A DNA stretch of 20,000 nt from an uncultured virus (IMG/VR IMGVR_UViG_3300030012_002620) (lineage: Duplodnaviria; Heunggongvirae; Uroviricota; Caudoviricetes; Crassvirales): the IMG/VR virus record IMGVR_UViG_3300030012_002620; one strand, written 5' to 3'. Positions within the stretch are counted from its first letter, which is position 1. The number at the start of each line of letters is the position of its first letter. Made by a program: the position numbers and the translations under genes. A model generated the notes under the pieces. It was not told the DNA's origin and searched no databases. It worked only from the letters and a program-made list of their open reading frames with translations. Of the stretch, positions 6,678 to 16,024 are shown piece after piece.

Positions 6678-7385
6678 TTAGTTAAAATATGCATAACCTG
6701 CAATGTTCTTTCCAAATCTTATTGTAACATTGTTAGCATCTACATATTCAATCTTCCCCATTATTTTATGTCCCTGGTCATCTACTATCGTTACACTTGG
6801 TTTTTTGTTAAGTCCATGATTCATTGACCAAGTAGCTGACGGTGTTGCTTGTTCAACCGCTTTATGCTTATCCAGGTCGTCATACCTAAACAACAACAAA
6901 GATAATAAATAATCTTCTTCATCTTGTAGGCTTCCATTTCCTCCTTTGAAGATAACACCTATATCATACAAGTCTGTATTGTTTGTGTTTTGTGTAGAAG
7001 TATTCCATTCAAACACTCCAAATTGAGTTGGGTCATTAGCTTTTTGTATTAAAACCACGCTTCTTTCTATTGTTTCATAAAACGTATTAATATCGACATC
7101 TGCTGCTGATTTTTTATGTAATTGCAAAGTAGATATTGAAGAAAAAGCTACTGTTGCACCTTGATCTACTGGCAACCTTATATATCCATACGTTTGTTTG
7201 CTGTTAGAAGGTCTAATAAATTTAAATCTAGAGCCAGTGGTTTCTACAGAAGAACTTTTATTTAAAAAATCTGTTATATCTGATATTTTATAATTTCTTG
7301 TATGTGTTCCTGCAGAATCAGTTCCAATAACTTTATCATTCTTCGTCACATTAGAGTCTAACGCATAAGTGCTAATTCTTGCCAT
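6678..7385 (-). CDS. Virion structural/tail-associated protein (235 aa)
   Basis: First gene of the fibre run. N-terminal MARISTY..D...DKVIGTD module shared with 10728..10985; C-terminal WSMNHGLNKKPSVTIVD domain. Confidence 0.7.
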   Translation of the reverse strand: MARISTYALDSNVTKNDKVIGTDSAGTHTRNYKISDITDFLNKSSSVETTGSRFKFIRPSNSKQTYGYIRLPVDQGATVAFSSISTLQLHKKSAADVDINTFYETIERSVVLIQKANDPTQFGVFEWNTSTQNTNNTDLYDIGVIFKGGNGSLQDEEDYLLSLLLFRYDDLDKHKAVEQATPSATWSMNHGLNKKPSVTIVDDQGHKIMGKIEYVDANNVTIRFGKNIAGYAYFN

Positions 7386-7429: not shown

Positions 7430-7564
7430 TTATCTGCCTTGGCCTCTATATCTCTTTTGGTAGTTTTTGCTACTCACGCATTTTGAAGTCTTTGTTTTTG
7501 CGTGAACACCTGGTCTTTTCTTTTTCTGCGCTTTTACGTAAGGCTTATAAATTATCTTAGCCAT
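7430..7564 (-). CDS. Small basic protein ending YRGQGR (44 aa)
   Basis: Not in the track. MAKIIYKPYVKAQKKKRPGVHAKTKTSKCVSSKNYQKRYRGQGR has 15 K/R and no D/E. TAATG overlap with the upstream gene. The ending recalls small marine-phage proteins. Confidence 0.8.
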   Translation of the reverse strand: MAKIIYKPYVKAQKKKRPGVHAKTKTSKCVSSKNYQKRYRGQGR

Positions 7565-7878
7565 TACTTTTTTAACTCATACACAACCTCTTGTATATCA
7601 CTTCTGTTTAATGCCAATTTGAAATCTAAACCTGCTTGAAAGGTTCTTACAATTTTTCCGTCTTTTTCTATTAATATTACAGGAACAGATTTAATTTGAC
7701 TTTTAAGTTTAGGACCCTGGTCTTCTAACCAAGCGTAATCATATTTACAACCTCTTAAGTCTTCAAGATATACTGTATTTTTTTGATTCCACTTAGCATT
7801 GATTTGAACTACTCTAATTTGTTGGCTATAGCTTGTATAACTAAAAAATAAGAATAGAATTATAATTAAATTTCTCAT
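7564..7878 (-). CDS. Exported thioredoxin-fold-like protein lacking CxxC (104 aa)
   Basis: Signal-peptide-like N-terminus (MRNLIIILFLFFSYTSYSQ). VVQINAKWN lies where thioredoxins have F.A.WCxxC, followed by the cis-Pro-type motif IKSVPVILIEKDGK. ATGA overlap. Confidence 0.6.
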   Translation of the reverse strand: MRNLIIILFLFFSYTSYSQQIRVVQINAKWNQKNTVYLEDLRGCKYDYAWLEDQGPKLKSQIKSVPVILIEKDGKIVRTFQAGLDFKLALNRSDIQEVVYELKK

Positions 7879-8183
7879 CTTTTATAAACTTTATCTTCTA
7901 TTTTATTTATTCTTTCTTTATTATCTAAAATGTCTTCTTTAAGTACGTCTGTTGATTTTTCTATTTGTATAATAGTGCTTCTGACAAGTTCATCTTTTAA
8001 TTGAAATTCCATTTTTTGTACAAACTCATCACTGCTAAAATTATCTACTTTATTATTGAGGTCTTGTATTTCACCCTGTAAAGTAAACCACATGCTGGCA
8101 ATAGCTACTGTTCCTGCCACCAACATTCCTATTGTTTTTAAATCTAGTTTTACTTCTGTTTCTTCGCTAATTTTTTTTGCCAT
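7875..8183 (-). CDS. Single-TM plus coiled-coil protein (102 aa), paralogue of 9698..10003
   Basis: Hydrophobic IGMLVAGTVAIASMWF followed by heptad-like sequence; shares KDELVRST with its paralogue. Confidence 0.7.
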   Translation of the reverse strand: MAKKISEETEVKLDLKTIGMLVAGTVAIASMWFTLQGEIQDLNNKVDNFSSDEFVQKMEFQLKDELVRSTIIQIEKSTDVLKEDILDNKERINKIEDKVYKR

Positions 8184-8668: not shown

Positions 8669-9126
8669 ATTACCATGTATTTAGTTTTTCCATCTTCTTT
8701 ATATGCTTTCAAACACCTGTTTCTGTTTTTTTGTGCATCTACATATGATACATGAACCCAGGATGGGTTTTGATCTGTTCCAAATTCCCATATCATTTGA
8801 TCATAATCAAGATTTGCTTTGATCCAGTCAAACATAGCCGCATTTGAAGCGTGACCATAAACATCATCAATATCTATCGCTTGACCTTTACAATGCTGAG
8901 ATTTTGTAGAACCTCCTATAGCTTTGTTAAGTTCTGGTGATCTATAAAAAGAATTTATCTTTATAGGTCCGCCCACCCAATCCCTCAAAGGTTGAAAAAT
9001 CATTTCAGCTACAGTCATCATATTTCCAAGATGTTCATCTGTAGGCGTGTTGTCTATTCCTCTCCTCTTTGCTGTTTCAGAATGGATAGCTTCATTGTAC
9101 GATACGTTTTTTGACAATTTATCCAT
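8665..9126 (-). CDS. Peptidase M15A-family endolysin (153 aa)
   Basis: Motifs INSFYRSPELNKAIGG, SQHCKGQAIDI and WVHVS supply the H/D/H Zn ligands; adjacent to the holin. Confidence 0.9.
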   Translation of the reverse strand: MDKLSKNVSYNEAIHSETAKRRGIDNTPTDEHLGNMMTVAEMIFQPLRDWVGGPIKINSFYRSPELNKAIGGSTKSQHCKGQAIDIDDVYGHASNAAMFDWIKANLDYDQMIWEFGTDQNPSWVHVSYVDAQKNRNRCLKAYKEDGKTKYMVI

Positions 9127-9508
9127 GAAATCTTTTTTGTTTCTTTTTAAATCTTCTAATAATTCCTTGTGCTCTACGCTCAGATATTTGTTTTTTTCTA
9201 GCGTCTCCTCCTCCTCTTTGAACTGTTCTATAGTAAGAATCTCCTTCTTTTGTCACACCTACATATCTGCTAGAACTTCTCTGGTCTCCTGTTAAACTTT
9301 TTCTATCTTTTGTTTTTAGCTTGAATCCTCCTTGTCTATTTACATCCATAGCTGCATCATCAATAGAATTATAGTCAACACCAACAGTCAATGTTTTAGT
9401 TTTTGATTTTGCCACGTCAAAACAAGGCACCCCAGGAGGACACTTCATTCTCGTAGACTTATTCTGTTTAGTAAGACTAGATATGTAAGAAAATTTATCT
9501 TTATTCAT
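9119..9508 (-). CDS. Basic hypothetical protein (~129 aa)
   Basis: ATG at 9508 preferred over the track's TTG at 9517, which overlaps the upstream micro-ORF. K/R-rich with a CPPGVPC motif; 8-nt overlap with the endolysin. Confidence 0.7.
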   Translation of the reverse strand: MNKDKFSYISSLTKQNKSTRMKCPPGVPCFDVAKSKTKTLTVGVDYNSIDDAAMDVNRQGGFKLKTKDRKSLTGDQRSSSRYVGVTKEGDSYYRTVQRGGGDARKKQISERRAQGIIRRFKKKQKRFHG

Positions 9509-9697: not shown

Positions 9698-10003
9698 TTA
9701 TTTTTTTTCAGTTAATTTATATAGCCTTTCATCCATTTTTAACAATCGTTCTTTTATTTCACCAACATCTTCTTTAACAGAATTTACATCTAATTGTATT
9801 TTTTCTACCGTGCTTCTAACTAATTCGTCTTTGTATTGCAACTCTATTGAGCTGACTTCTGGTTCTGGCAACTCTTTAGCCTCTTGTATTTGAGCTTGAA
9901 GACTAAAATATGTTCCTGCAAACATTATTGTTCCAAATATCATAATACCTATTGTTCCTAAATCTAATTGCACTTTAGTGTTTTGACCTATTTTCGTCGC
10001 CAT
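9698..10003 (-). CDS. Single-TM plus coiled-coil protein (101 aa), paralogue of 7875..8183
   Basis: LDL.TIG...G...A...F.LQ..IQ...KDELVRST aligns with the paralogue over the whole length. Confidence 0.75.
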   Translation of the reverse strand: MATKIGQNTKVQLDLGTIGIMIFGTIMFAGTYFSLQAQIQEAKELPEPEVSSIELQYKDELVRSTVEKIQLDVNSVKEDVGEIKERLLKMDERLYKLTEKK

Positions 10004-10004
10004 T

Positions 10005-10250
10005 TTATTTCTTTTTGCCTCCGCCCCTAGCTCTGTTGGATTTTTGTTTTTCTAATACCAACCTTCCGCTTCGGTGCGAACAATCTAACTTATCACCTTT
10101 ACGTGATTTTTTATTTTTTCTATTGAATAAATTACATTCGACTCTTTTTCGCACAGCTTCTTTTTTCTTCTGCGCTTTAGCACTTGATTTTCTGTGCTTT
10201 TTTCGAGCTTCAGGGTTGTCTCTGTAATATTTTGCAGTTCTACTTAACAT
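10005..10250 (-). CDS. Small basic protein, possible degenerate HNH-like fold (81 aa)
   Basis: KGDKLDCSHRSGRLVLEKQKSNRAR resembles the GDGKDVxH...NR pattern of small phage HNH-like proteins. Preceded by AAGGAAG. Confidence 0.55.
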   Translation of the reverse strand: MLSRTAKYYRDNPEARKKHRKSSAKAQKKKEAVRKRVECNLFNRKNKKSRKGDKLDCSHRSGRLVLEKQKSNRARGGGKKK

Positions 10251-10258
10251 CGCTTCCT

Positions 10259-10411
10259 TTATTTATAAGGAAACATCCTGTTAAGTGAATCTCTACGTTC
10301 CGAGCAGCCACAGTCTTTTCCCATTTTTTTTGAAATAGTATCTACAACTTTCTTAACTCCAGTTGCAGTTGTAACCTTTTCAATAGTGTCTCCTAAACCT
10401 CTACTTTTCAT
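10259..10411 (-). CDS. Small phage protein with GLGDT...DCGC...LN..FPY motif (50 aa)
   Basis: Not in the track. MKSRGLGDTIEKVTTATGVKKVVDTISKKMGKDCGCSERRDSLNRMFPYK; fills the gap on the operon strand. Confidence 0.8.
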   Translation of the reverse strand: MKSRGLGDTIEKVTTATGVKKVVDTISKKMGKDCGCSERRDSLNRMFPYK

Positions 10412-10415
10412 TTTA

Positions 10416-10423
10416 CAAATTTA
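10416..10423 (-). promoter_or_regulatory. Bacteroidota-type -7 promoter element TAAATTTG
   Basis: TAnnTTTG in a 26-nt intergenic gap, 4 nt before ATG 10411. Confidence 0.55.
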
Positions 10424-10437
10424 ATAAAAATATGATA

Positions 10438-10728
10438 TTAATATTTACCCTGTCTACTCTTAGGAGAGGACTGTGTAGAGCCTCCTTTTCCAGCCCATAA
10501 TTTTTTACAAGCCCAGTACCTGGCGGTTAGCTTGTTAGTAGCAGAGGAGCATTTGTGTCTTGCTTTGAATGACTTTCTTGCTTTATCTGAATAATTGTGC
10601 CCGTAGCCTTTTGCTCCGAAATGAATTATCTTTTCTTTTCCATTTGCACAGGCTTTAACCATCTTTTTTTTGCCCGCTCTATCACTAGCACGAACAACGT
10701 TGCACTTCATTTTTGCCTTGTCTGCCAT
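10438..10728 (-). CDS. Basic Cys/His protein, DUF5754-like (96 aa)
   Basis: KIIHFGAKGY...ARKSFKARHKC...ARYWACKKLW recalls the IHFG...RH...W..LW viral family (assignment from memory). TAATG overlap. Confidence 0.65.
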   Translation of the reverse strand: MADKAKMKCNVVRASDRAGKKKMVKACANGKEKIIHFGAKGYGHNYSDKARKSFKARHKCSSATNKLTARYWACKKLWAGKGGSTQSSPKSRQGKY

Positions 10729-10985
10729 TACGATACTCTTATTTTAACTACGCTTCCTGTTCTGTATAAACCATTTACTGGTACATTTCCTGCAGCAGCA
10801 GCTGAATCATCAGCATAATCAGCTAATCCAGTTATAGATGGTGAAGCAAACATAAAAGACTCTAAAGCTGCAACGGTATAGTTTTTTGTTTTACCGCCAT
10901 CAGCACCAGATGATCCGTCTGTTCCAATCAGCTTATCTGCCGCTTCTACAGTTCCGTCGTTATTGTATGTACTAATTTTTGCCAT
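10728..10985 (-). CDS. Small acidic virion/mini-fibre protein (85 aa)
   Basis: N-terminal module shared with 6678..7385. C-terminal YADDSAAAAGNVPVNGLYRTGSVVKIRV resembles fibre end motifs. Confidence 0.7.
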   Translation of the reverse strand: MAKISTYNNDGTVEAADKLIGTDGSSGADGGKTKNYTVAALESFMFASPSITGLADYADDSAAAAGNVPVNGLYRTGSVVKIRVS

Positions 10986-10991
10986 AGTTAT

Positions 10992-11243
10992 CTATTTAGT
11001 ATAATTTTTTGTTACTTTTCCAGCTTTAGTATTACTAACAACTGTTTTTCCTTTCCTGCCTTCTCTTTTCTTTTTTCTGGCAGTTTTAGCTCTTTCTGCT
11101 TTAGACATTGACCTAGCTTTTGCTAAGGGTAAACATCTATCAGGGTTTTTTTTATCTTTACTAGTTCCGCAGGCTCCTTTAATAGAACCATCTGAACCTA
11201 TACGCACCCATTTTTGTTCACGCCATTTTTTTAACTCACCCAT
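10992..11243 (-). CDS. Basic protein, DUF5872-like L..W..xKW...CG...C.P part (83 aa)
   Basis: GELKKWREQKWVRI...GACG...RCLPLAKA; K/R-rich. Family assignment from memory. Confidence 0.65.
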   Translation of the reverse strand: MGELKKWREQKWVRIGSDGSIKGACGTSKDKKNPDRCLPLAKARSMSKAERAKTARKKKREGRKGKTVVSNTKAGKVTKNYTK

Positions 11244-11359
11244 TATCCTTTTCTATTTTTCCTGAGCTTTTTAAAATCAGCTCCAGTGATCTTGTCAAAA
11301 GGAGGTGCAAGCTTTGCAATTTTCATTTGCGCAGGTGTCAGTTTCTTTTTTTTATTCAT
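11243..11359 (-). CDS. Small basic protein with KITGADF..LR motif (38 aa)
   Basis: Not in the track. MNKKKKLTPAQMKIAKLAPPFDKITGADFKKLRKNRKG; ATGA and TAATG overlaps at its two ends. Confidence 0.8.
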   Translation of the reverse strand: MNKKKKLTPAQMKIAKLAPPFDKITGADFKKLRKNRKG

Positions 11360-11505
11360 TTTTTGTGAACTTTTTGTATTTCAAAATTAAAAGACTGACT
11401 TCCGCCTTTATGTGGTTTGTATCCGCCTTTTGGGTCTTTCATCAATTTTGGAGCTCCCTTTCCTGATTTCATCCAGTGGTAGCCTTTAGGTGCTTTTACT
11501 TTCAT
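11356..11505 (-). CDS. Small basic protein with APKGYHWM motif (49 aa)
   Basis: Not in the track. MKVKAPKGYHWMKSGKGAPKLMKDPKGGYKPHKGGSQSFNFEIQKVHKK; start/stop overlaps at both ends. Confidence 0.8.
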   Translation of the reverse strand: MKVKAPKGYHWMKSGKGAPKLMKDPKGGYKPHKGGSQSFNFEIQKVHKK

Positions 11506-11585
11506 TATTTTTTCTTTTTCTTTTTCTTTTTTTTCTTCACGACCTTTTTCTTTTTAGGTCCATATGTTGCGCTTCCGTATGGCAT
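11505..11585 (-). CDS. Poly-lysine micropeptide (26 aa)
   Basis: MPYGSATYGPKKKKVVKKKKKKKKKK. Mixed AAA/AAG codons all in the Lys frame; A-rich start context; TAATG coupling. Confidence 0.75.
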   Translation of the reverse strand: MPYGSATYGPKKKKVVKKKKKKKKKK

Positions 11586-11608
11586 AATTTCTAATTTTAA
11601 TATTAAAC

Positions 11609-11770
11609 TTACTTTTTCTTTTTACTACCCTTAGCGTAATTAGGGTCTTTACAATATTTACTAGCCGCCATGTTTGCATACGCAGACGGATATGTGTCAA
11701 AAGTTCTTTTTGCCCAGGCTATACCAGCTGCACAAATTTTATTACTTTTTTTCTTTTTTTCCTTTGCCAT
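11609..11770 (-). CDS. Small basic protein with YPSAYAN motif (53 aa)
   Basis: Not in the track. MAKEKKKKSNKICAAGIAWAKRTFDTYPSAYANMAASKYCKDPNYAKGSKKKK; ATG 2 nt after the upstream stop. Confidence 0.8.
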   Translation of the reverse strand: MAKEKKKKSNKICAAGIAWAKRTFDTYPSAYANMAASKYCKDPNYAKGSKKKK

Positions 11771-11772
11771 AA

Positions 11773-12672
11773 TTAAAATGTTGTTTTTACTCTATCAGGA
11801 TATGCTTTTCCGTAAGCAGTATTAAACCTGTTTTGGAATTTTTTATAATTCGTGTTCTGACCTCCAGATACAACACTTCTAGTTTTCATGAAAGAAACAT
11901 TTCTTGCATTATACAAACCTCCTGTGTTTTGGTTGCCAATTGTTATATTAGCTCTTTTATTAGACTGATTTGCTTTTGCTTGTTTGTCAAAGTTTTTATA
12001 AGAAGCATATATAGGATTTGCAAAAGTTGTAGGTTGTCCTGCAGCATTCATTAATCCTGTTCCTATCTTTCTATTACTCTTTCTGTTTTGCACAGCACCT
12101 TTAAAATAAGCCTTTTGTCTAACGTCAGTAGCTTTACCACCTATTCTGCTTGCTATCTTTTCTACTTTCTGTGTGTATTTGTTTCCTACGTTAGTAGCTC
12201 TCTTTTGTAGTTTTTTTAGTTTCTTTTCACTTACTGAACCTGGATTCATCACAGCAGATAAGTATTTGCCATAAGCTTTTTGTACTCTAGGTGAAAATCT
12301 TTTACTTACCTTGTCTATCTTTTTTTCTCCTTTAGATATAAGTTTTTCAGATTTTACGTATCCTTTTTGAATTGTTCTAAAACTTTTACCGTAAGACTTT
12401 AATCCTTTATTAACTGTTGATGCGTGAGATTGATTCATTACAACCCCCCTGTCAGTGCTTCTTCTTGATGTTTGAGAAGTTTGTACGTTTCTTCTATAAT
12501 ATCCTCCTCGGCCAGTAGCAAAGTTTCTTGTATATCCTCCTCCTCCTTCATTATATCTTACGCTTTGGTTGTGAAAGCTGACAGGCATTGCTGGGTTTAT
12601 AAAAGCTTGATTTCTTTTTATAAAACCTTTTGATAGGCCAGTATTTCTAAATGGTTTGTTTCCGTTTGACAT
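11773..12672 (-). CDS. Highly basic low-complexity protein (~299 aa)
   Basis: ATG at 12672 preferred because the track's TTG at 12705 lies inside the promoter box. K/R/N/Q/G/S/Y-rich, about 10 acidic residues, no Cys or Trp. Confidence 0.8.
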   Translation of the reverse strand: MSNGNKPFRNTGLSKGFIKRNQAFINPAMPVSFHNQSVRYNEGGGGYTRNFATGRGGYYRRNVQTSQTSRRSTDRGVVMNQSHASTVNKGLKSYGKSFRTIQKGYVKSEKLISKGEKKIDKVSKRFSPRVQKAYGKYLSAVMNPGSVSEKKLKKLQKRATNVGNKYTQKVEKIASRIGGKATDVRQKAYFKGAVQNRKSNRKIGTGLMNAAGQPTTFANPIYASYKNFDKQAKANQSNKRANITIGNQNTGGLYNARNVSFMKTRSVVSGGQNTNYKKFQNRFNTAYGKAYPDRVKTTF

Positions 12673-12702
12673 ACCTTTAAATTTTTTTCGTTTATTTTGT
12701 AA

Positions 12703-12710
12703 CAAAGATA
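12703..12710 (-). promoter_or_regulatory. Bacteroidota-type -7 promoter element TATCTTTG heading the basic-protein operon
   Basis: Same octamer as 7404..7411, located in the 51-nt divergent gap. Confidence 0.65.
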
Positions 12711-12723
12711 AATAAAAATAACA

Positions 12724-13203
12724 TTGAATATTTTGGATAAAAAAGATGTAAATCTAAACAAACGCAGAAAGCCACGATTACAGCCAAGAGAAAGAAAATA
12801 TAACTTTTTAAAGTATTTAAGGGTGGTAAAATACTATGTCCGTAAAAAATATAACATTACTTCTTCTGAATTAGATATGCTTCTTTATTTGTATGATGTT
12901 CCTTTTTTCAGAAAAGATGAATTCAATTACTATGAAAACTCTATGTCCTGGGATAAAAGAAGGTTTTATAGAATGGTGCAAGAAGGTTACATCAAAGAGT
13001 GGAGGTCTGGAGGCACCAAACTTGGAAAAAGTAAATTATATGAATTGACACAAAAATCTAAAACGATTTGTTCTAATATGTATAAAAAACTTATGAAAGA
13101 AGAATTAATATCCGAAGATCCACGATCTAACCCTATATTTAAAAAACAAACCTATACTGATAAAGTCTATAAAAATATTATAGAAAAAATGAATTCTAGA
13201 TAG
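12724..13203 (+). CDS. Putative winged-helix (MarR-like) DNA-binding protein (159 aa)
   Basis: KYNITSSELDMLLYL...RMVQEGYIKEW...KLYELTQKSK fits a wHTH pattern. It is the only credible plus-strand gene in the left arm; TTG start uncertain. Confidence 0.65.
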   Translation: MNILDKKDVNLNKRRKPRLQPRERKYNFLKYLRVVKYYVRKKYNITSSELDMLLYLYDVPFFRKDEFNYYENSMSWDKRRFYRMVQEGYIKEWRSGGTKLGKSKLYELTQKSKTICSNMYKKLMKEELISEDPRSNPIFKKQTYTDKVYKNIIEKMNSR

Positions 13204-13942
13204 CGTCTTCGTATTTTTTTACTGCTTTCTTTAAAATACTATAATCTCTAATTGATGTTATTTGTTTGAGCTGTCTCATTTTAAGTCTATTACCACCTTC
13301 TGTCAATTCATCTATAGCTTCAATAGCTTTGGATATTAGGTTGGTTTCTTTTATAATTTCGTTGAGGTCTTTAATTTTTTGGGTTACTCTTTCATCAAAA
13401 TACCACTTAACCATGTATCTTGATGTTCTTGCCACCTCAGCGACTTTACTTATAGTAATTTTAATATTATCCTGCCATAGCTCTTGTACTATGTTGTCCA
13501 GGTATTGTTTTGCTGGTCTTTGTTTGCTACTTATTAGGTTTCCGACTATTTTCATTTTTTCCTTTCTATCTATCCTTTTGGACGGATTGAATATCACTTT
13601 TCTTTTTCTTGCACAATAAGGAACTTTATTTTGCTCTGATACCACTAATACCATATTTTCAACTCTAGTTTGACCATAGGTTCTTATAATATGCCCATTA
13701 CTTCTATCTGATAAATCTAAAAATAGTTTTATCATCAGTGGTATATCAAAGTCTGGGTTAAGGTATATAAACTTTTCAGCTATATATTGCAGCTCTTTAA
13801 ACGAATTTATCTTTCGCGTAGTTCTGTATAGCCTGTAATAATTAACACCTTTTGGAAAAAACAAGTAGTCTTTACCGTCAAAACGGAAATAAGACTCCAT
13901 GATAATCCTGTGTTTGTTATAATCAAATAACGGAATTAACAT
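13196..13942 (-). CDS. Hypothetical DNA-binding protein with C-terminal HTH-like motif(s) (248 aa)
   Basis: KITISKVAEVARTSRYMVKWYF is HTH-like, with a second similar unit RLKMRQLKQITSIRDYSILKK. Confidence 0.6.
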   Translation of the reverse strand: MLIPLFDYNKHRIIMESYFRFDGKDYLFFPKGVNYYRLYRTTRKINSFKELQYIAEKFIYLNPDFDIPLMIKLFLDLSDRSNGHIIRTYGQTRVENMVLVVSEQNKVPYCARKRKVIFNPSKRIDRKEKMKIVGNLISSKQRPAKQYLDNIVQELWQDNIKITISKVAEVARTSRYMVKWYFDERVTQKIKDLNEIIKETNLISKAIEAIDELTEGGNRLKMRQLKQITSIRDYSILKKAVKKYEDAI

Positions 13943-14201
13943 CTTTCATGGTTACTACAACGTCTTGTTCTCGTATAGCTTTATATTTCTCCCCTTTTAC
14001 TCTCAGGTCAGAACCAGCAACCTTATCGAAATAAACAAAACTTCCTGGCTCTACTTCTTTAACCAAGTCGCCTACAGTTATTACTTCACCTATTATATAT
14101 CTGATGTTTAAATCTGATTGTTCTGTAATAATAAGTCCTAATTCATTCTTTTGAACGACCTCGTCGTCTTTAACAATTATAAAATTTCCTACTGCTTTCA
14201 T
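13923..14201 (-). CDS. groES: Phage co-chaperonin (Cpn10/GroES-like, 92 aa)
   Basis: Mobile loop KNELGLII, then GEVITVG, V.PG..VYF and GEKYKAIREQDV; lies near groEL. Confidence 0.9.
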   Translation of the reverse strand: MKAVGNFIIVKDDEVVQKNELGLIITEQSDLNIRYIIGEVITVGDLVKEVEPGSFVYFDKVAGSDLRVKGEKYKAIREQDVVVTMKDVNSVI

Positions 14202-14413
14202 TGAGTTTGTGGTAATTTCGGTGCCCTTTTATAATTTATATTGGGCTTTTTATCATCATCAACATTCCACTTTGTAATTACCTGTCCTTCCAAGTCTATT
14301 ACAGTATAGCCTTGTCTAGCTAGAAGCTTTATAGCTCCGTTTACTTGTTTTGCTTGCTCCCTAAAATGAGTAAAAATTTGATTCTCAAAAGGGTGGTGAT
14401 CGTGTTTTGCCAT
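14198..14413 (-). CDS. Hypothetical protein between groEL and groES (71 aa)
   Basis: ATG 3 nt after the groEL stop; ATGA overlap with groES. Confidence 0.75.
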   Translation of the reverse strand: MAKHDHHPFENQIFTHFREQAKQVNGAIKLLARQGYTVIDLEGQVITKWNVDDDKKPNINYKRAPKLPQTQ

Positions 14414-14416
14414 AAT

Positions 14417-16024
14417 TTAATTTTTATTTATTTCTTCTTTTTTTATTCTTTTATTTGATACAACGCAAGATGTAGTTAAAATTACACCAGCAACAGAGGC
14501 AGCATTCAAAACTGCGTTCTTTGTTACTTTAAATGGATCAATAATTCCAGCTTTATACATATCGCTGAATTTTTTGTTTTTTACATCATACCCATAGTTC
14601 AATCTACCTGCCATACAAATTTTATAAACAGGCTCTGAGCTTTCTCCTGAATTTTCAACTATCTTCCTGAATACATCAGAAAGCGCATCAAATACTATAT
14701 TATAGCCTACCTTGAAAGAATCGGAAGAGCTTCGAGGGGCTTTTTTGCGATTTTTTTTCTTGGTGGCGTTTAATAGAGCTGCTCCTCCACCAGCAACTAT
14801 ACCTTCTTCTAAGGCTGCTTTAGTTGCATGGATGGAATCATCTACCCTATCTTTCTTTTCTTTAAGTTCTACATCAGAGTTACCTGCTAATTTTATAGTA
14901 GCTACACCTCCAGCTAGTTTTGATAATCTATCTTTCAGATGCCACTTATCAGATTTATTCTTTGTAAGCTTAATTTCATTGGTTAGCCATTCTATTGTTT
15001 CTAGCTTTTTTGGGTTTTCTTCTCCTTCGAACACCAAAATTGTCTCATTTATGTCTGAAATCATGGTTTTACACGTTCCAAGGTAGCTAGAATCTATATT
15101 TTGTGCTGAATCACCAGATAATTCTGAAATTATACGAGCTCCTGTCATCAAACACAGGTCTTCAAGTAATTCAAACCTCTTAATTCCTATTCCTTCTGGT
15201 GTAATAAAGTTTGCAGTTAAGTTTTTCTTGTTAATATTCTGTGTAATGAACAATTTTACCCTATCATCAAGCTCAGAAATGATTAAAAGTGGTCTTTTTT
15301 GCTTAATTGACTGTTCAAAAGCAAAATGTAGTCTTTCGTGCATGTCAATTTTAGTGTCACTTATAACAATTAGAGGATTTTGAAACTCAACTGTACGTTT
15401 TCTAAGATTATTGACGGAAAAAGGAGTGCCATACCCTCTTTTTATACGTGTTCCATTAGTTATTTCGGTATAATCCTCGTTTGTGGAGGACTCATCCATA
15501 GTAACTACCCCATCTTTACCTACTTTATTGTAAGCGTCTGCTATCATATTACCTAAATACGTGTCTCCATTTGCTGAAATCGTCGCTACTTCTACTAGAC
15601 TAGCTTCGGTGACGTCTTTTTTGTTTTTTTCCAAAATTGACACCACATCTTTTGCAGCTTGTTCTATACCTTCTTTAGCTTGAGTAACATTATCTATTGT
15701 TTCAACTTGGTCAAAACACCTATCTATGATCGCTTTTGCTAAAACACACGACGTAGTTGTACCATCTCCAGCTTCTGTCGCTGTTTTTTGAGAGGCCTGA
15801 CGTAAAATACTAACCCCTAAGTTTTCTACAGGGTCTGATAATACTATACTGTTTGCAACAGTTACTCCATCTTTAGTTACATGGGGGGTTCCAAATTGGT
15901 CTTCGATAATTACTGTTCTACCAGAAGCTCCAAGAGTGGAGGCCACAGCTTCAGCTAATATATCAATACCTTTTTTTAGGTTATACCTACCTTCAGAACC
16001 GAAGGATATGTTCTTTTCTATCAT
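14417..16024 (-). CDS. groEL: Phage chaperonin (Cpn60/GroEL-like, 535 aa)
   Basis: Motifs VTKDGVTVA, AGDGTTT, ATISANGD, KKDRVDD, EEGIVAGGG and GIIDPFKV..A..NAASVA. Confidence 0.97.
   Translation of the reverse strand: MIEKNISFGSEGRYNLKKGIDILAEAVASTLGASGRTVIIEDQFGTPHVTKDGVTVANSIVLSDPVENLGVSILRQASQKTATEAGDGTTTSCVLAKAIIDRCFDQVETIDNVTQAKEGIEQAAKDVVSILEKNKKDVTEASLVEVATISANGDTYLGNMIADAYNKVGKDGVVTMDESSTNEDYTEITNGTRIKRGYGTPFSVNNLRKRTVEFQNPLIVISDTKIDMHERLHFAFEQSIKQKRPLLIISELDDRVKLFITQNINKKNLTANFITPEGIGIKRFELLEDLCLMTGARIISELSGDSAQNIDSSYLGTCKTMISDINETILVFEGEENPKKLETIEWLTNEIKLTKNKSDKWHLKDRLSKLAGGVATIKLAGNSDVELKEKKDRVDDSIHATKAALEEGIVAGGGAALLNATKKKNRKKAPRSSSDSFKVGYNIVFDALSDVFRKIVENSGESSEPVYKICMAGRLNYGYDVKNKKFSDMYKAGIIDPFKVTKNAVLNAASVAGVILTTSCVVSNKRIKKEEINKN

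Follow-up and report, generated by a model that had tools for sequence, protein, structure and literature searches.

What might a tailed phage gain from a run of ten mostly tiny genes, nine of which encode basic proteins? The window, a 20,000-nucleotide stretch of an uncultured Crassvirales virus that we take to be a marine Bacteroidota phage, carries such a run, which the preliminary description read as a dedicated operon for a protamine- or histone-like core packaged with the genome or, alternatively, for a set of ribosome- or RNA-binding effectors. No functional description of the cassette was found in the open-access papers searched, and an earlier one may exist elsewhere.

Organization of the cassette

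All ten ORFs were located on the minus strand, between 12672 and 10005, with the lengths originally claimed, and are named here by letter and length: A299, B53, C26, D49, E38, F83, G85, H96, I50 and J81. The successive gaps are 2, 23, -1, -4, -1, 6, -1, 26 and 8 nt, and the described chaining by overlaps or gaps of a few base pairs thus mostly holds. The ORFs tile 97% of the small-ORF stretch, against a mean of 21% and a maximum of 62% in 1000 Markov simulations, which gave a mean of 2.5 and a maximum of 8 basic ORFs where nine are observed. The coding strand is 43% A, so that basic ORFs by themselves arise easily by chance; the tiling does not. Judged from pN/pS values of 0.04-0.30 against homologues in the fetched loci (2 to 144 homologues each), eight of the nine basic ORFs are under purifying selection, the value for C26 being calculated from two homologues, one of them probably a poly-Lys chance match. 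The simulations and pN/pS together rule out chance ORFs on an A-rich strand, and the ten ORFs are genuine genes.

The nine basic ORFs, eight of them 26-96 aa long, have net charges per residue of +0.12 to +0.54; taken as one set, they carry +171 on 775 aa. The picture of Lys/Arg-rich, acid-poor proteins is therefore accurate for these nine, and the 85-aa exception is barely acidic (net -2). Paired Cys or His residues are also present as described, with two Cys in each of B53, F83, I50 and J81, four in H96, and three His in D49. The ORFs form separate clusters, and this rules out tandem copies of a single gene. Five of the ORFs are shorter than 60 aa and are absent from a 60-aa ORF list; the preliminary description had counted five as absent from its own ORF track. 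Gene callers with a 60-aa limit and tryptic proteomics would both be prone to miss such small basic proteins.

The cassette is headed by a TAnnTTTG box, TATCTTTG (12703..12710, minus strand), which begins at 12710, upstream of the ORF run as first reported, and which we take to be the -7 element of Bacteroidota sigma-70 promoters. Of 30 related loci, 29 have a match to the motif in the 70 nt preceding the first cassette gene, compared with 310 of 5224 background windows. The cassette genes thus follow one another behind a conserved box that resembles a promoter, where the late strand begins. The intergenic region is common to the cassette promoter and a divergent regulator-like gene, T159 (12724..13203, plus strand; phrog_17028, E 5e-16), which has a weak transcriptional-regulator match (E 0.008) and is present in 30 of the 80 loci fetched with F83. 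A generic sigma-70 scan was at chance (24 vs 25.2), as was a terminator scan (3 vs 2.3), and no terminator is therefore claimed.

To call the operon dedicated is too strong, because one of its genes resembles a gene elsewhere in the window and because the run continues into lysis genes. G85 (10728..10985, minus strand), the non-basic interloper, shares its N-terminus with a 235-aa gene at 6678-7385 (41% over 51 aa, E 3e-9) and is probably an ordinary structural gene. Past the cassette the operon runs on into tail genes and, after a gap of 1 nt, genes for membrane proteins, an endolysin and a holin; the downstream neighbours include a holin and an M15 endolysin (Pfam, PHROG). Further basic ORFs, all on the minus strand, lie in this region: M129 (9119..9508; 129 aa from ATG), a variable slot directly before the endolysin, and P44 (7430..7564; 44 aa), both already described, and a third, the Trp-rich L46 (9556..9696; 46 aa), whose cassette membership is uncertain. 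Neither L46 nor M129 has a homologue in the fetched loci; P44 occurs in 14 of the 80 loci fetched with F83 (pN/pS 0.32), and in relatives it is found now in the lysis region, now within the cassette.

Could some members, namely I50, L46 and an amphipathic Trp/Cys-rich 46-aa family found in 18 of 30 relatives' cassettes, be cationic membrane-active helpers of the downstream lysis cassette, for which phiKT gp28 is a precedent? The continuity with the holin and M15 endolysin genes would suit this, as would the placement of the cluster after an M15 peptidase in HTVC106P and HTVC023P. We nevertheless regard it as highly improbable: the hydrophobic moments of I50 (0.51) and L46 (0.52) do not exceed the value for F83, other phages carry the core modules at a distance from their lysis genes, and the virion homologues discussed below would be left unexplained.

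Gene families and their distribution

Relatives retain a four-gene core, B53, F83, H96 and I50, together with fast-changing extras. B53 (11609..11770, minus strand; phrog_27331, pN/pS 0.16), with its PSAYA motif, is present in 78 of the 80 loci fetched with F83. F83 itself (10992..11243, minus strand; phrog_23735) has invariant W7, W12, C25, G26 and C37. Neither matches DUF5872 (PF19197; gathering cut-off 27.5 bits) at E 0.1. Their iterated profiles reach proteins of loci L110 and L097 and P-SCSP2 gp22, which score 51-54 bits for DUF5872, as well as S-SM1 gp115 and S-CREM2 gp160, and alignments show the PSAYA and W..W/CG/C motifs to be common to B53/F83 and DUF5872 members above the cut-off. 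By this transitive homology, B53 is the N-terminal half and F83 the C-terminal half of DUF5872.

H96 (10438..10728, minus strand; phrog_7595, part of phrog_220) is a small basic domain that scores 18.7 bits (E 0.0018) for DUF5754 (PF19058), below the gathering cut-off of 27.4 bits; DUF5754 members make up 11% of one Atlas cluster set. Its model (pLDDT 85) has three strands and two helices; that of F83 has a pLDDT of 71. Neither model found a usable counterpart among solved structures: against 48,161 chains the best Z scores are 2.1 for H96 and 2.9 for F83, and a Foldseek search of the PDB gave neither a match below E 1, which does not imply a new fold. AP2/integrase-arm matches to the two models, with E above 1, were not counted. 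I50 (10259..10411, minus strand; pN/pS 0.30) is mildly basic, with a helix and a CGC motif, and is found in 27 of 30 complete cassettes; longer forms carry an additional CxxC domain.

J81 (10005..10250, minus strand; phrog_6437) has no Pfam match. Its nearest named Atlas cluster is HNH_3 (score 0.93, 175 features), and a D-x-x-H motif and a later Asn are kept across three aligned homologues; J81 is possibly a reduced HNH-like finger. Two smaller basic proteins have homologues in Pelagibacter phage HTVC106P: D49 (11356..11505, minus strand; pN/pS 0.29), with a GYHW motif, matches gp28 (E 2e-11), and E38 (11243..11359, minus strand; pN/pS 0.23) matches gp29 (E 3e-12). By eye, the KITGADF motif of E38 is similar to a shortened EF-hand loop; three rounds of iterated profiles failed to recover EF-hand-like peptides.

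A299 (11773..12672, minus strand), which would be 310 aa if started at an upstream TTG, is a low-complexity protein of net charge +51 in a variable slot, with no Pfam, PHROG or NCBIfam family above cut-off and no homologue in the fetched loci. C26 (11505..11585, minus strand) has 14 Lys and no acidic residues; its counterparts in loci L062, L036, L175 and L189 are Lys-rich ORFs that begin with MPYG and are 27-28 aa long. The cassette proteins appear to fall into two tiers. H96, F83, B53, J81 and I50, which are folded and have invariant aromatic and Cys residues, probably recognise something specific, whereas C26 and A299, fast-turnover low-complexity polycations, probably supply charge only.

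Co-occurrence across genomes was found in the 80 loci fetched with F83 and in a set of 30 complete cassettes. In these 30, 262 basic ORFs fall into 68 clusters, 15 of them in three or more loci, SEG masking having inflated the number of single-locus clusters. Gene order and content vary widely among relatives, which argues against one fixed multi-part complex as first envisaged. The cassette of locus L073 includes DUF6321 (PF19846), a family of which the window yielded no member. The papers found describe no function for DUF5872, DUF5754 or DUF6321. About 2200 stored IMG/VR stretches match the F83 pattern and about 1500 the H96 pattern, and a cyanophage polyprotein is matched by 540 phage records. 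Contigs from marine RNA libraries (two studies) cover pieces of H96, F83, B53 and an A299-related gene at shares of 0.05-0.11; they carry no information on transcription, its level or strand, and were not counted as support.

In size and charge the proteins are like small ribosomal or nucleoid proteins, and their promoter is of host type, so they might stay out of the virion and bind ribosomes, RNA or the nucleoid of the infected host late in the cycle. Ribosomal-protein homologues were rejected, however, with no such family in Pfam, PHROG or NCBIfam scans, and the best match of the H96 sequence in the PDB has an E of only 0.17. Besides phages of Bacteroidota, SAR11, Roseobacter and cyanobacteria, these families are also represented in eukaryotic giant-virus records, which weakens the ribosome/RNA alternative, and the portal and protease fusions and protease-type borders described below point instead to the head. 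We judge host effectors to be unlikely, slightly more so than the condensing core considered next.

Charge and the proposed genome condensation

A bulk protamine- or histone-like core, packaged in hundreds of copies with genome neutralisation and compaction as its main job, was the main idea of the preliminary description. It could draw on the net charge of +171 per protein set, on Lys-only peptides such as C26 and the 232-aa Lys/Met/Ala-rich ORF of locus L073, and on giant-virus-type proteins in which H96 is joined to Ser/Arg/Lys repeats. Ascovirus P64, reportedly a protamine-like condensing protein of a large eukaryotic DNA virus (PMC6163548), would be a precedent among such cationic virion proteins. 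Those viruses condense DNA for encapsidation, however, whereas tailed phages use a terminase motor and pump naked DNA through the portal, and we claim no homology. About 380 sets, with a protein mass near 32 MDa against roughly 42 MDa for the DNA, would be required to neutralise half of the approximately 130,600 phosphates. In the stretches scanned, Panino and phi38:1 (36 kb) yielded J81 alone and Elemovirus J81 and H96, most cassette genes not being found. Because the available charge is modest and most of the genes are missing from cultured relatives, bulk condensation is less likely as the main job, and the folded modules with invariant Trp, Cys and Gly likewise leave the original proposal of a protamine- or histone-like function unsupported; we consider it improbable. 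T4 without all three of its internal proteins still grows (PMC9026906).

Homologues in virions and in head genes

Are the proteins nonetheless packaged? Relatives of three cassette genes are reported in purified phage particles. J81 is 38% identical over 81 aa to phi40:1 gp080 (profile 45.8 bits vs 10.9 for the best of 500 shuffles), whose virion status comes solely from its GenBank note, 'experimental MS/MS proteomics'; gp080 is absent from the main text of two Cellulophaga papers. S-SM1 gp115 (T4-GC119) has 13 counts in Supplementary Table 8 of PMC3037559, and S-CREM2 ORF160 (gp160) has 7 unique peptides in Table 3 of PMC10665884. Both carry F83 and B53 modules (35-41 bits vs at most 8.3 in 500 shuffles); the counts are low, come from purified particles open to contaminants, and are per protein, not mapped to modules. 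A Syn9 homologue is annotated yet undetected in virion proteomics, and nothing relevant was found in the literature for Elemovirus proteomics. A 'Virion protein' match in S-SCSM1 (E 0.16), not traced to an ORF, was not counted.

The virion evidence concerns homologues of J81, B53 and F83, and for H96 the evidence consists of head-gene fusions and context. Among the nine basic proteins, evidence of either kind is confined to these four. P-SCSP2 has five small basic genes between its scaffold and capsid genes, including B53 and F83 homologues. The H96 module lies inside the portal-InPase-MuF protein of CL131, precedes the XkdF protease in Aeromonas phage 2L372D, and elsewhere is fused to DUF5872 and Ser/Arg/Lys tails. 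The H96 fold matches ChaB/XkdF fusions and ICP1 ORF125 (E 6e-5), which is named a prohead protease in PMC9040626. The companion module DUF6321 is located within a protease-scaffold protein.

The borders of the modules in polyproteins are also informative. At the position two residues ahead of the F83 anchor, 8 of 10 T4-like cases have Glu, and 8 of 8 HK97-type cases have Lys, followed by Ser; the HK97-type loci are close kin that equal one or two events. In these same HK97-type phages a similar Lys-Ala motif is found near the N-terminus of the capsid protein. Modules in polyproteins start after the protease-type motif of their lineage, Glu in T4-like and Lys-Ser in HK97-like phages. In the window's own group, the F83 module begins within four residues of Met in 89 of 134 cases, and the window's modules start at or adjoining Met, without a propeptide.

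Virion detection fails to separate the inside from the outside of the particle, and so the proteins could conceivably decorate or cement the outer surface of capsid or tail, stabilised by disulfides; the conserved Cys pairs and the presence of G85 in the same run would fit. A location in the prohead interior is implied instead by the borders of prohead-protease type and by modules inserted in protease-scaffold proteins, and the H96 homologues in 2L372D and GR11A are without the Cys residues. Of the alternatives weighed, external decoration is the one to which we give the least credence.

Proposed role as head cargo

We therefore favour, with reasonable though far from complete confidence, a role for the small basic proteins as dispensable accessory cargo that would be loaded into the procapsid and bind incoming DNA. 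Since relatives of three of the genes are reported in purified particles, the cassette proteins are likely packed in the head with DNA; packaging with the genome, as first proposed, thus gains indirect support from these homologues and from modules in head-assembly genes. Late transcription by host sigma-70, with coupled translation, would be the first step. Loading without a propeptide would follow, probably by charge onto an acidic protein (389 aa, net -28) between the portal and capsid genes, a scaffold by position only; in other lineages the same modules would be loaded through fusion to the portal, the protease or a cleavable tag. A PHROG scan of 30 genome proteins, several of which stayed unassigned, matched no prohead protease family, and because the window's genes also have no propeptide, the loading route is a guess. 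The proteins would then stay on the DNA in the mature head, and at least some may be ejected with the genome to shield incoming DNA or block host defences.

This arrangement is reminiscent of the T4 internal proteins, which are basic, DNA-binding, dispensable and poorly conserved, T4 cutting after Glu (PMC9026906). Like IPI, IPII and IPIII, the window's genes are small, basic, clustered and variable, dispensability being indirect, from cultured relatives. The Glu-ending tags resembling the T4 gp21 site are on homologous modules of T4-like marine phages and not on the window's genes. Unlike T4, with its three propeptide-bearing proteins, the window has about nine genes, several of its families are shared across unrelated virus groups, and its phage resembles phi38:1 and yielded no prohead protease in the scan above. 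No IPI, IPII or IPIII family is listed in Pfam, PHROG or NCBIfam scans of the window. The best reading is that the cassette would work like the T4 internal proteins, by analogy and probably not as their homologue.

Other known proteins each share part of the system. T4-GC119 of cyanomyoviruses (S-SM1 gp115, S-BM3 gp185) and S-CREM2 gp160 have the B53 and F83 modules in common with the window, although in one polyprotein with Glu-bounded modules and not as separate genes. The window's B53 and F83 are linked to DUF5872 members above cut-off, and H96 is often fused to DUF5872, although the window's own proteins score below the Pfam DUF5872 and DUF5754 cut-offs. The Cellulophaga phages phi40:1 and phi38:1 (Pervagoviridae), with a capsid protein related to that of the window's phage (36% identity), have a free-standing J81 homologue, gp080, but there it is solitary.

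Implications

A broader and more speculative view, which we hold to be possible but rather doubtful, is that the DUF5872 halves, the H96 domain without a solved fold match, DUF6321 and the J81 finger could form a cross-realm kit, a minimal viral chromatin or DNA shield in the capsids of tailed phages and giant viruses. Each lineage would load it in its own way, as free genes, Glu-cut or Lys-cut polyproteins, or portal and protease fusions. The free-gene version would be at its most expanded in the present group of Bacteroidota phages, an abundant one, and would enter the cell with the genome to protect it from host nucleases.

Aquatic viruses carry these families very commonly, yet no function is given for them in the papers found. 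If the proteins do serve as head cargo, many small genes now labelled 'hypothetical' would gain a testable role, and internal-protein loading in podoviruses without a maturation protease could be tested in HTVC106P, P-SCSP2, Elemovirus and phi40:1. The variable slots would then be the place to seek injected anti-defence proteins, as T4 IPI proved to be.

Results

The window covers the final 20 kb of its contig, which is 65,305 bases long and on which family searches find terminase, portal, a 462-aa capsid-family protein, tail fibres, large ejection-like proteins, GroEL and GroES. Among the 85 records that match its capsid protein, the nearest cultured phage is Maribacter phage Panino (55%), followed by Elemovirus (50%) and Cellulophaga phi38:1/Calle (36%), neighbours that, by sequence, identify the source as a phi38:1-like phage of Bacteroidota. 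The cassette (10005..12710, minus strand) occupies the 5' end of a long minus-strand structural region. GroEL/GroES lie at 13923-16024 and adjoin the cassette in 33 of 80 fetched loci; a second GroES-like gene (G000:C1:38615-39175) adjoins the terminase.

Are the ten small ORFs of the cassette real genes? Named by letter in 5' to 3' order and by length in residues (A299, B53, C26, D49, E38, F83, G85, H96, I50, J81), they have the lengths, overlaps and composition first ascribed to them. Nine are basic, against a Markov null with mean 2.5 and maximum 8 (1000 simulations), an excess that is modest because the coding strand is 43% A, whereas ORF tiling, at 97% against a simulated maximum of 62%, is far over chance. 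Measured against homologues in the fetched loci, pN/pS is 0.04-0.30 in eight of the nine basic ORFs; A299 has no homologue in those loci. The operon is not the dedicated one that the preliminary description had proposed: a 235-aa gene further downstream begins with a stretch similar to G85, and the chain continues into membrane, endolysin and holin genes. That some of the basic proteins are themselves lysis peptides is very unlikely. Flanking the M15 endolysin and holin are three more minus-strand genes (9698-10003, 7875-8183 and 7564-7878), two for coiled-coil proteins with a membrane anchor and one for a signal-peptide-like protein, possibly a spanin substitute.

Single-sequence searches of the 80 IMG/VR loci, which were fetched with F83 so that its own count is circular, found B53 in 78, H96 in 42, I50 in 37, GroEL in 33, P44 (a basic peptide at 7430..7564, minus strand) in 14, E38 in 13, J81 in eight, D49 in three and C26 in one. 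Thirty loci, the window included and two pairs being near-identical, are intact from GroES to I50. Each holds between two and 13 basic ORFs, and the 262 together form 68 clusters; H96 and I50 occur in 27, B53 and F83 in 26. Fifteen clusters are present in at least three loci and most others in a single locus, a number inflated by low-complexity masking. From these counts, the expected co-occurrence across genomes holds for a four-gene core (B53, F83, H96, I50), and the rest is therefore many variable slots. Five more conserved small basic families, none found in the window's own cassette, are represented by L041:8317-8457 (18 of 30 cassettes), L042:7212-7418 (15), L009:5321-5515 (13), L052:6840-7001 (11) and L014:6667-6786 (9). 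One variable slot (L073:4981-5679) encodes a 232-aa Lys/Met/Ala-rich, histone-H1-like low-complexity ORF that matched nothing in a Pfam search. Cultured relatives carry little of the cassette: profile scans of phi38:1 (36 kb) and Panino (33 kb) found no cassette family except J81, and 10 kb of Elemovirus yielded J81, H96 and G85-like genes.

The promoter-like box TAnnTTTG (12703..12710, minus strand), which we take to be the Bacteroidota sigma-70 -7 element, is shared by relatives. Of 30 loci that carry T159, a divergent regulator-like gene (12724..13203, plus strand), 29 have a match to the box no more than 70 nt ahead of the first cassette gene, against 310 of 5224 background windows. In many relatives its reverse complement CAAAGATA follows a few bases past the box, forming a palindrome (12703-12740 in the window; the corresponding intergenic region in L003, L007, L009, L014, L025, L026, L032 and L040). 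TAnnTTTG/CAAAGATA may be two promoters set back to back or else the operator of T159.

The modules extend well beyond this group. B53 and F83 are, by transitive homology, the N- and C-terminal halves of DUF5872, and H96 is DUF5754-like. Pelagibacter phage HTVC106P has H96, E38, D49, B53 and F83 homologues in a single cluster, and in Prochlorococcus podovirus P-SCSP2 the space between scaffold and major capsid genes holds five small basic genes, B53/F83 homologues and the companion module DUF6321 among them. Basic peptides with an EF-hand-like single loop (L249:2740-2865, L084:4661-5026; Pfam E 9e-6 and 5e-4, under cut-off) adjoin the DUF5872 halves in P-SCSP2 and HTVC023P. At E 0.001, H96 hits 101 phage records, of which Elemovirus accounts for 68, and its homologues number 671 representatives at 50% clustering; among the matches listed, profiles also find B53 or F83 in 34 of 120 longer homologues. 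H96 sits between portal and InPase domains in CL131 gp012 and precedes an XkdF protease domain in Aeromonas phage 2L372D gp102. The fold predicted for H96 (pLDDT 85) has three strands and two helices; it matches ICP1 ORF125, ChaB fusions and XkdF fusions at E <0.001. Weaker matches (E 0.001-0.15) are with marseillevirus, iridovirus, CeV-01B and virophage proteins. ICP1 Gp125 is named a presumed scaffold protease (PMC9040626), and a listing for the algal virus CpV-BQ1 includes both DUF5872 and DUF5754 (PMC12085832). In some unnamed homologues H96 is fused with a kinase or with Ser/Arg/Lys repeats, and their giant-virus-type label is one of composition. H96 also stands at the N-terminus of large proteins of 990-1379 aa, two of which have an F83-type module (P0112, P0259, P0276; L021, L055, L060).

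Discussion

How might such proteins reach a phage head? The HK97 protease cuts at Lys-Ser. Loci were classed by independent marker genes as own-group (159), T4-like (11) or HK97-protease-type (8). In the last class a Lys stands two residues ahead of the conserved F83 Leu, followed by Ser, in 8/8, loci that are kin and therefore count as one or two events. These phages have a like Lys-Ala motif at the start of the capsid protein, and their protease-scaffold protein contains a DUF6321 module bounded by such motifs. In T4-like loci a Glu takes the same place in 8/10, the other two having Glu a few residues further up; T4 gp21 cleaves after Glu, stripping short targeting propeptides off T4 internal proteins (PMC9026906). 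The residues before F83 look like a putative processing signature. In the own group the module starts within four residues of Met in 89/134, and fused B53-F83 forms are likely among the remainder. An aromatic-x-x-Gly-Gly motif, repeated in P0112 and in small basic proteins of other phage groups, is a candidate third targeting or cutting signal, and a repeated F-E-K-x-A-like motif preceding H96 homologues P0300, P0315, P0322, P0327 and P0332 may mark a further protease class.

Three homologues have been reported from virions. The record of phi40:1 gp080, which J81 matches at 38% over 81 aa (profile 45.8 bits, best of 500 shuffles 10.9), is annotated 'structural protein, based on experimental MS/MS proteomics analysis'. 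Iterated B53 and F83 profiles from the window match S-SM1 gp115 and S-CREM2 ORF160 at 35-41 bits, where shuffled sequences score no higher than 8.3. S-SM1 gp115 (T4-GC119, 1488 nt) has 13 counts in Suppl. Table 8, where column order is deduced from S-SM1-unique rows and the family is entered as absent from S-PM2 and undetected in Syn9 (PMC3037559); in S-CREM2, seven unique peptides cover 13.1% of ORF160 (Table 3, PMC10665884). All three detections resolve whole protein and whole particle, neither module nor inside from outside; we consider an outer cement the least likely reading, and effectors acting outside the virion quite unlikely. In T4-like phages (L087:1028-2818; L091, L092, L108) the module-bearing genes adjoin a cytidylyltransferase, itself reported in S-SM1 and S-CREM2 virions.

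We favour, with some confidence, head-internal accessory cargo. Late transcription and coupled translation would yield a set of small polycations, probably pulled into the procapsid by charge, a mode of loading suggested by the lack of a propeptide on the window's modules and of any prohead protease among the genome proteins scanned. A 389-aa protein between the portal and capsid genes, net -28, would by position be the scaffold. The cassette proteins would then remain with the DNA, some of them being ejected. Arithmetic weighs against the protamine/histone-like charge neutralisation envisaged at first: one set carries +171 on 775 aa, so that 100 sets would cover about 13% of the phosphates, and offsetting half of them would take about 32 MDa of protein. 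Bulk DNA condensation is therefore unlikely as the main job. The invariant Trp, Gly and Cys of F83 and near-invariant Lys, Gly, Arg and Trp of H96 suggest that these folded members make specific contacts, with DNA, capsid wall or a host enzyme as candidate targets.

The proposed mode of action resembles that of T4 internal proteins, but the window's proteins have no propeptide and no homology to them appeared in Pfam, PHROG and NCBIfam scans, so the cassette is not a member of that system. The papers found under the names DUF5872 and DUF5754 describe no function, and DUF6321 gave no paper; literature searches on DNA condensation by small basic virion proteins led to eukaryotic viruses only, and those on the capsid targeting of internal proteins by way of gp21 gave, judged by title, nothing on the cassette families. 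What the window adds is an expanded, free-gene version of these modules, with a core, variable slots and a conserved promoter-like box, and the linking of three published or database virion detections to cassette homologues.
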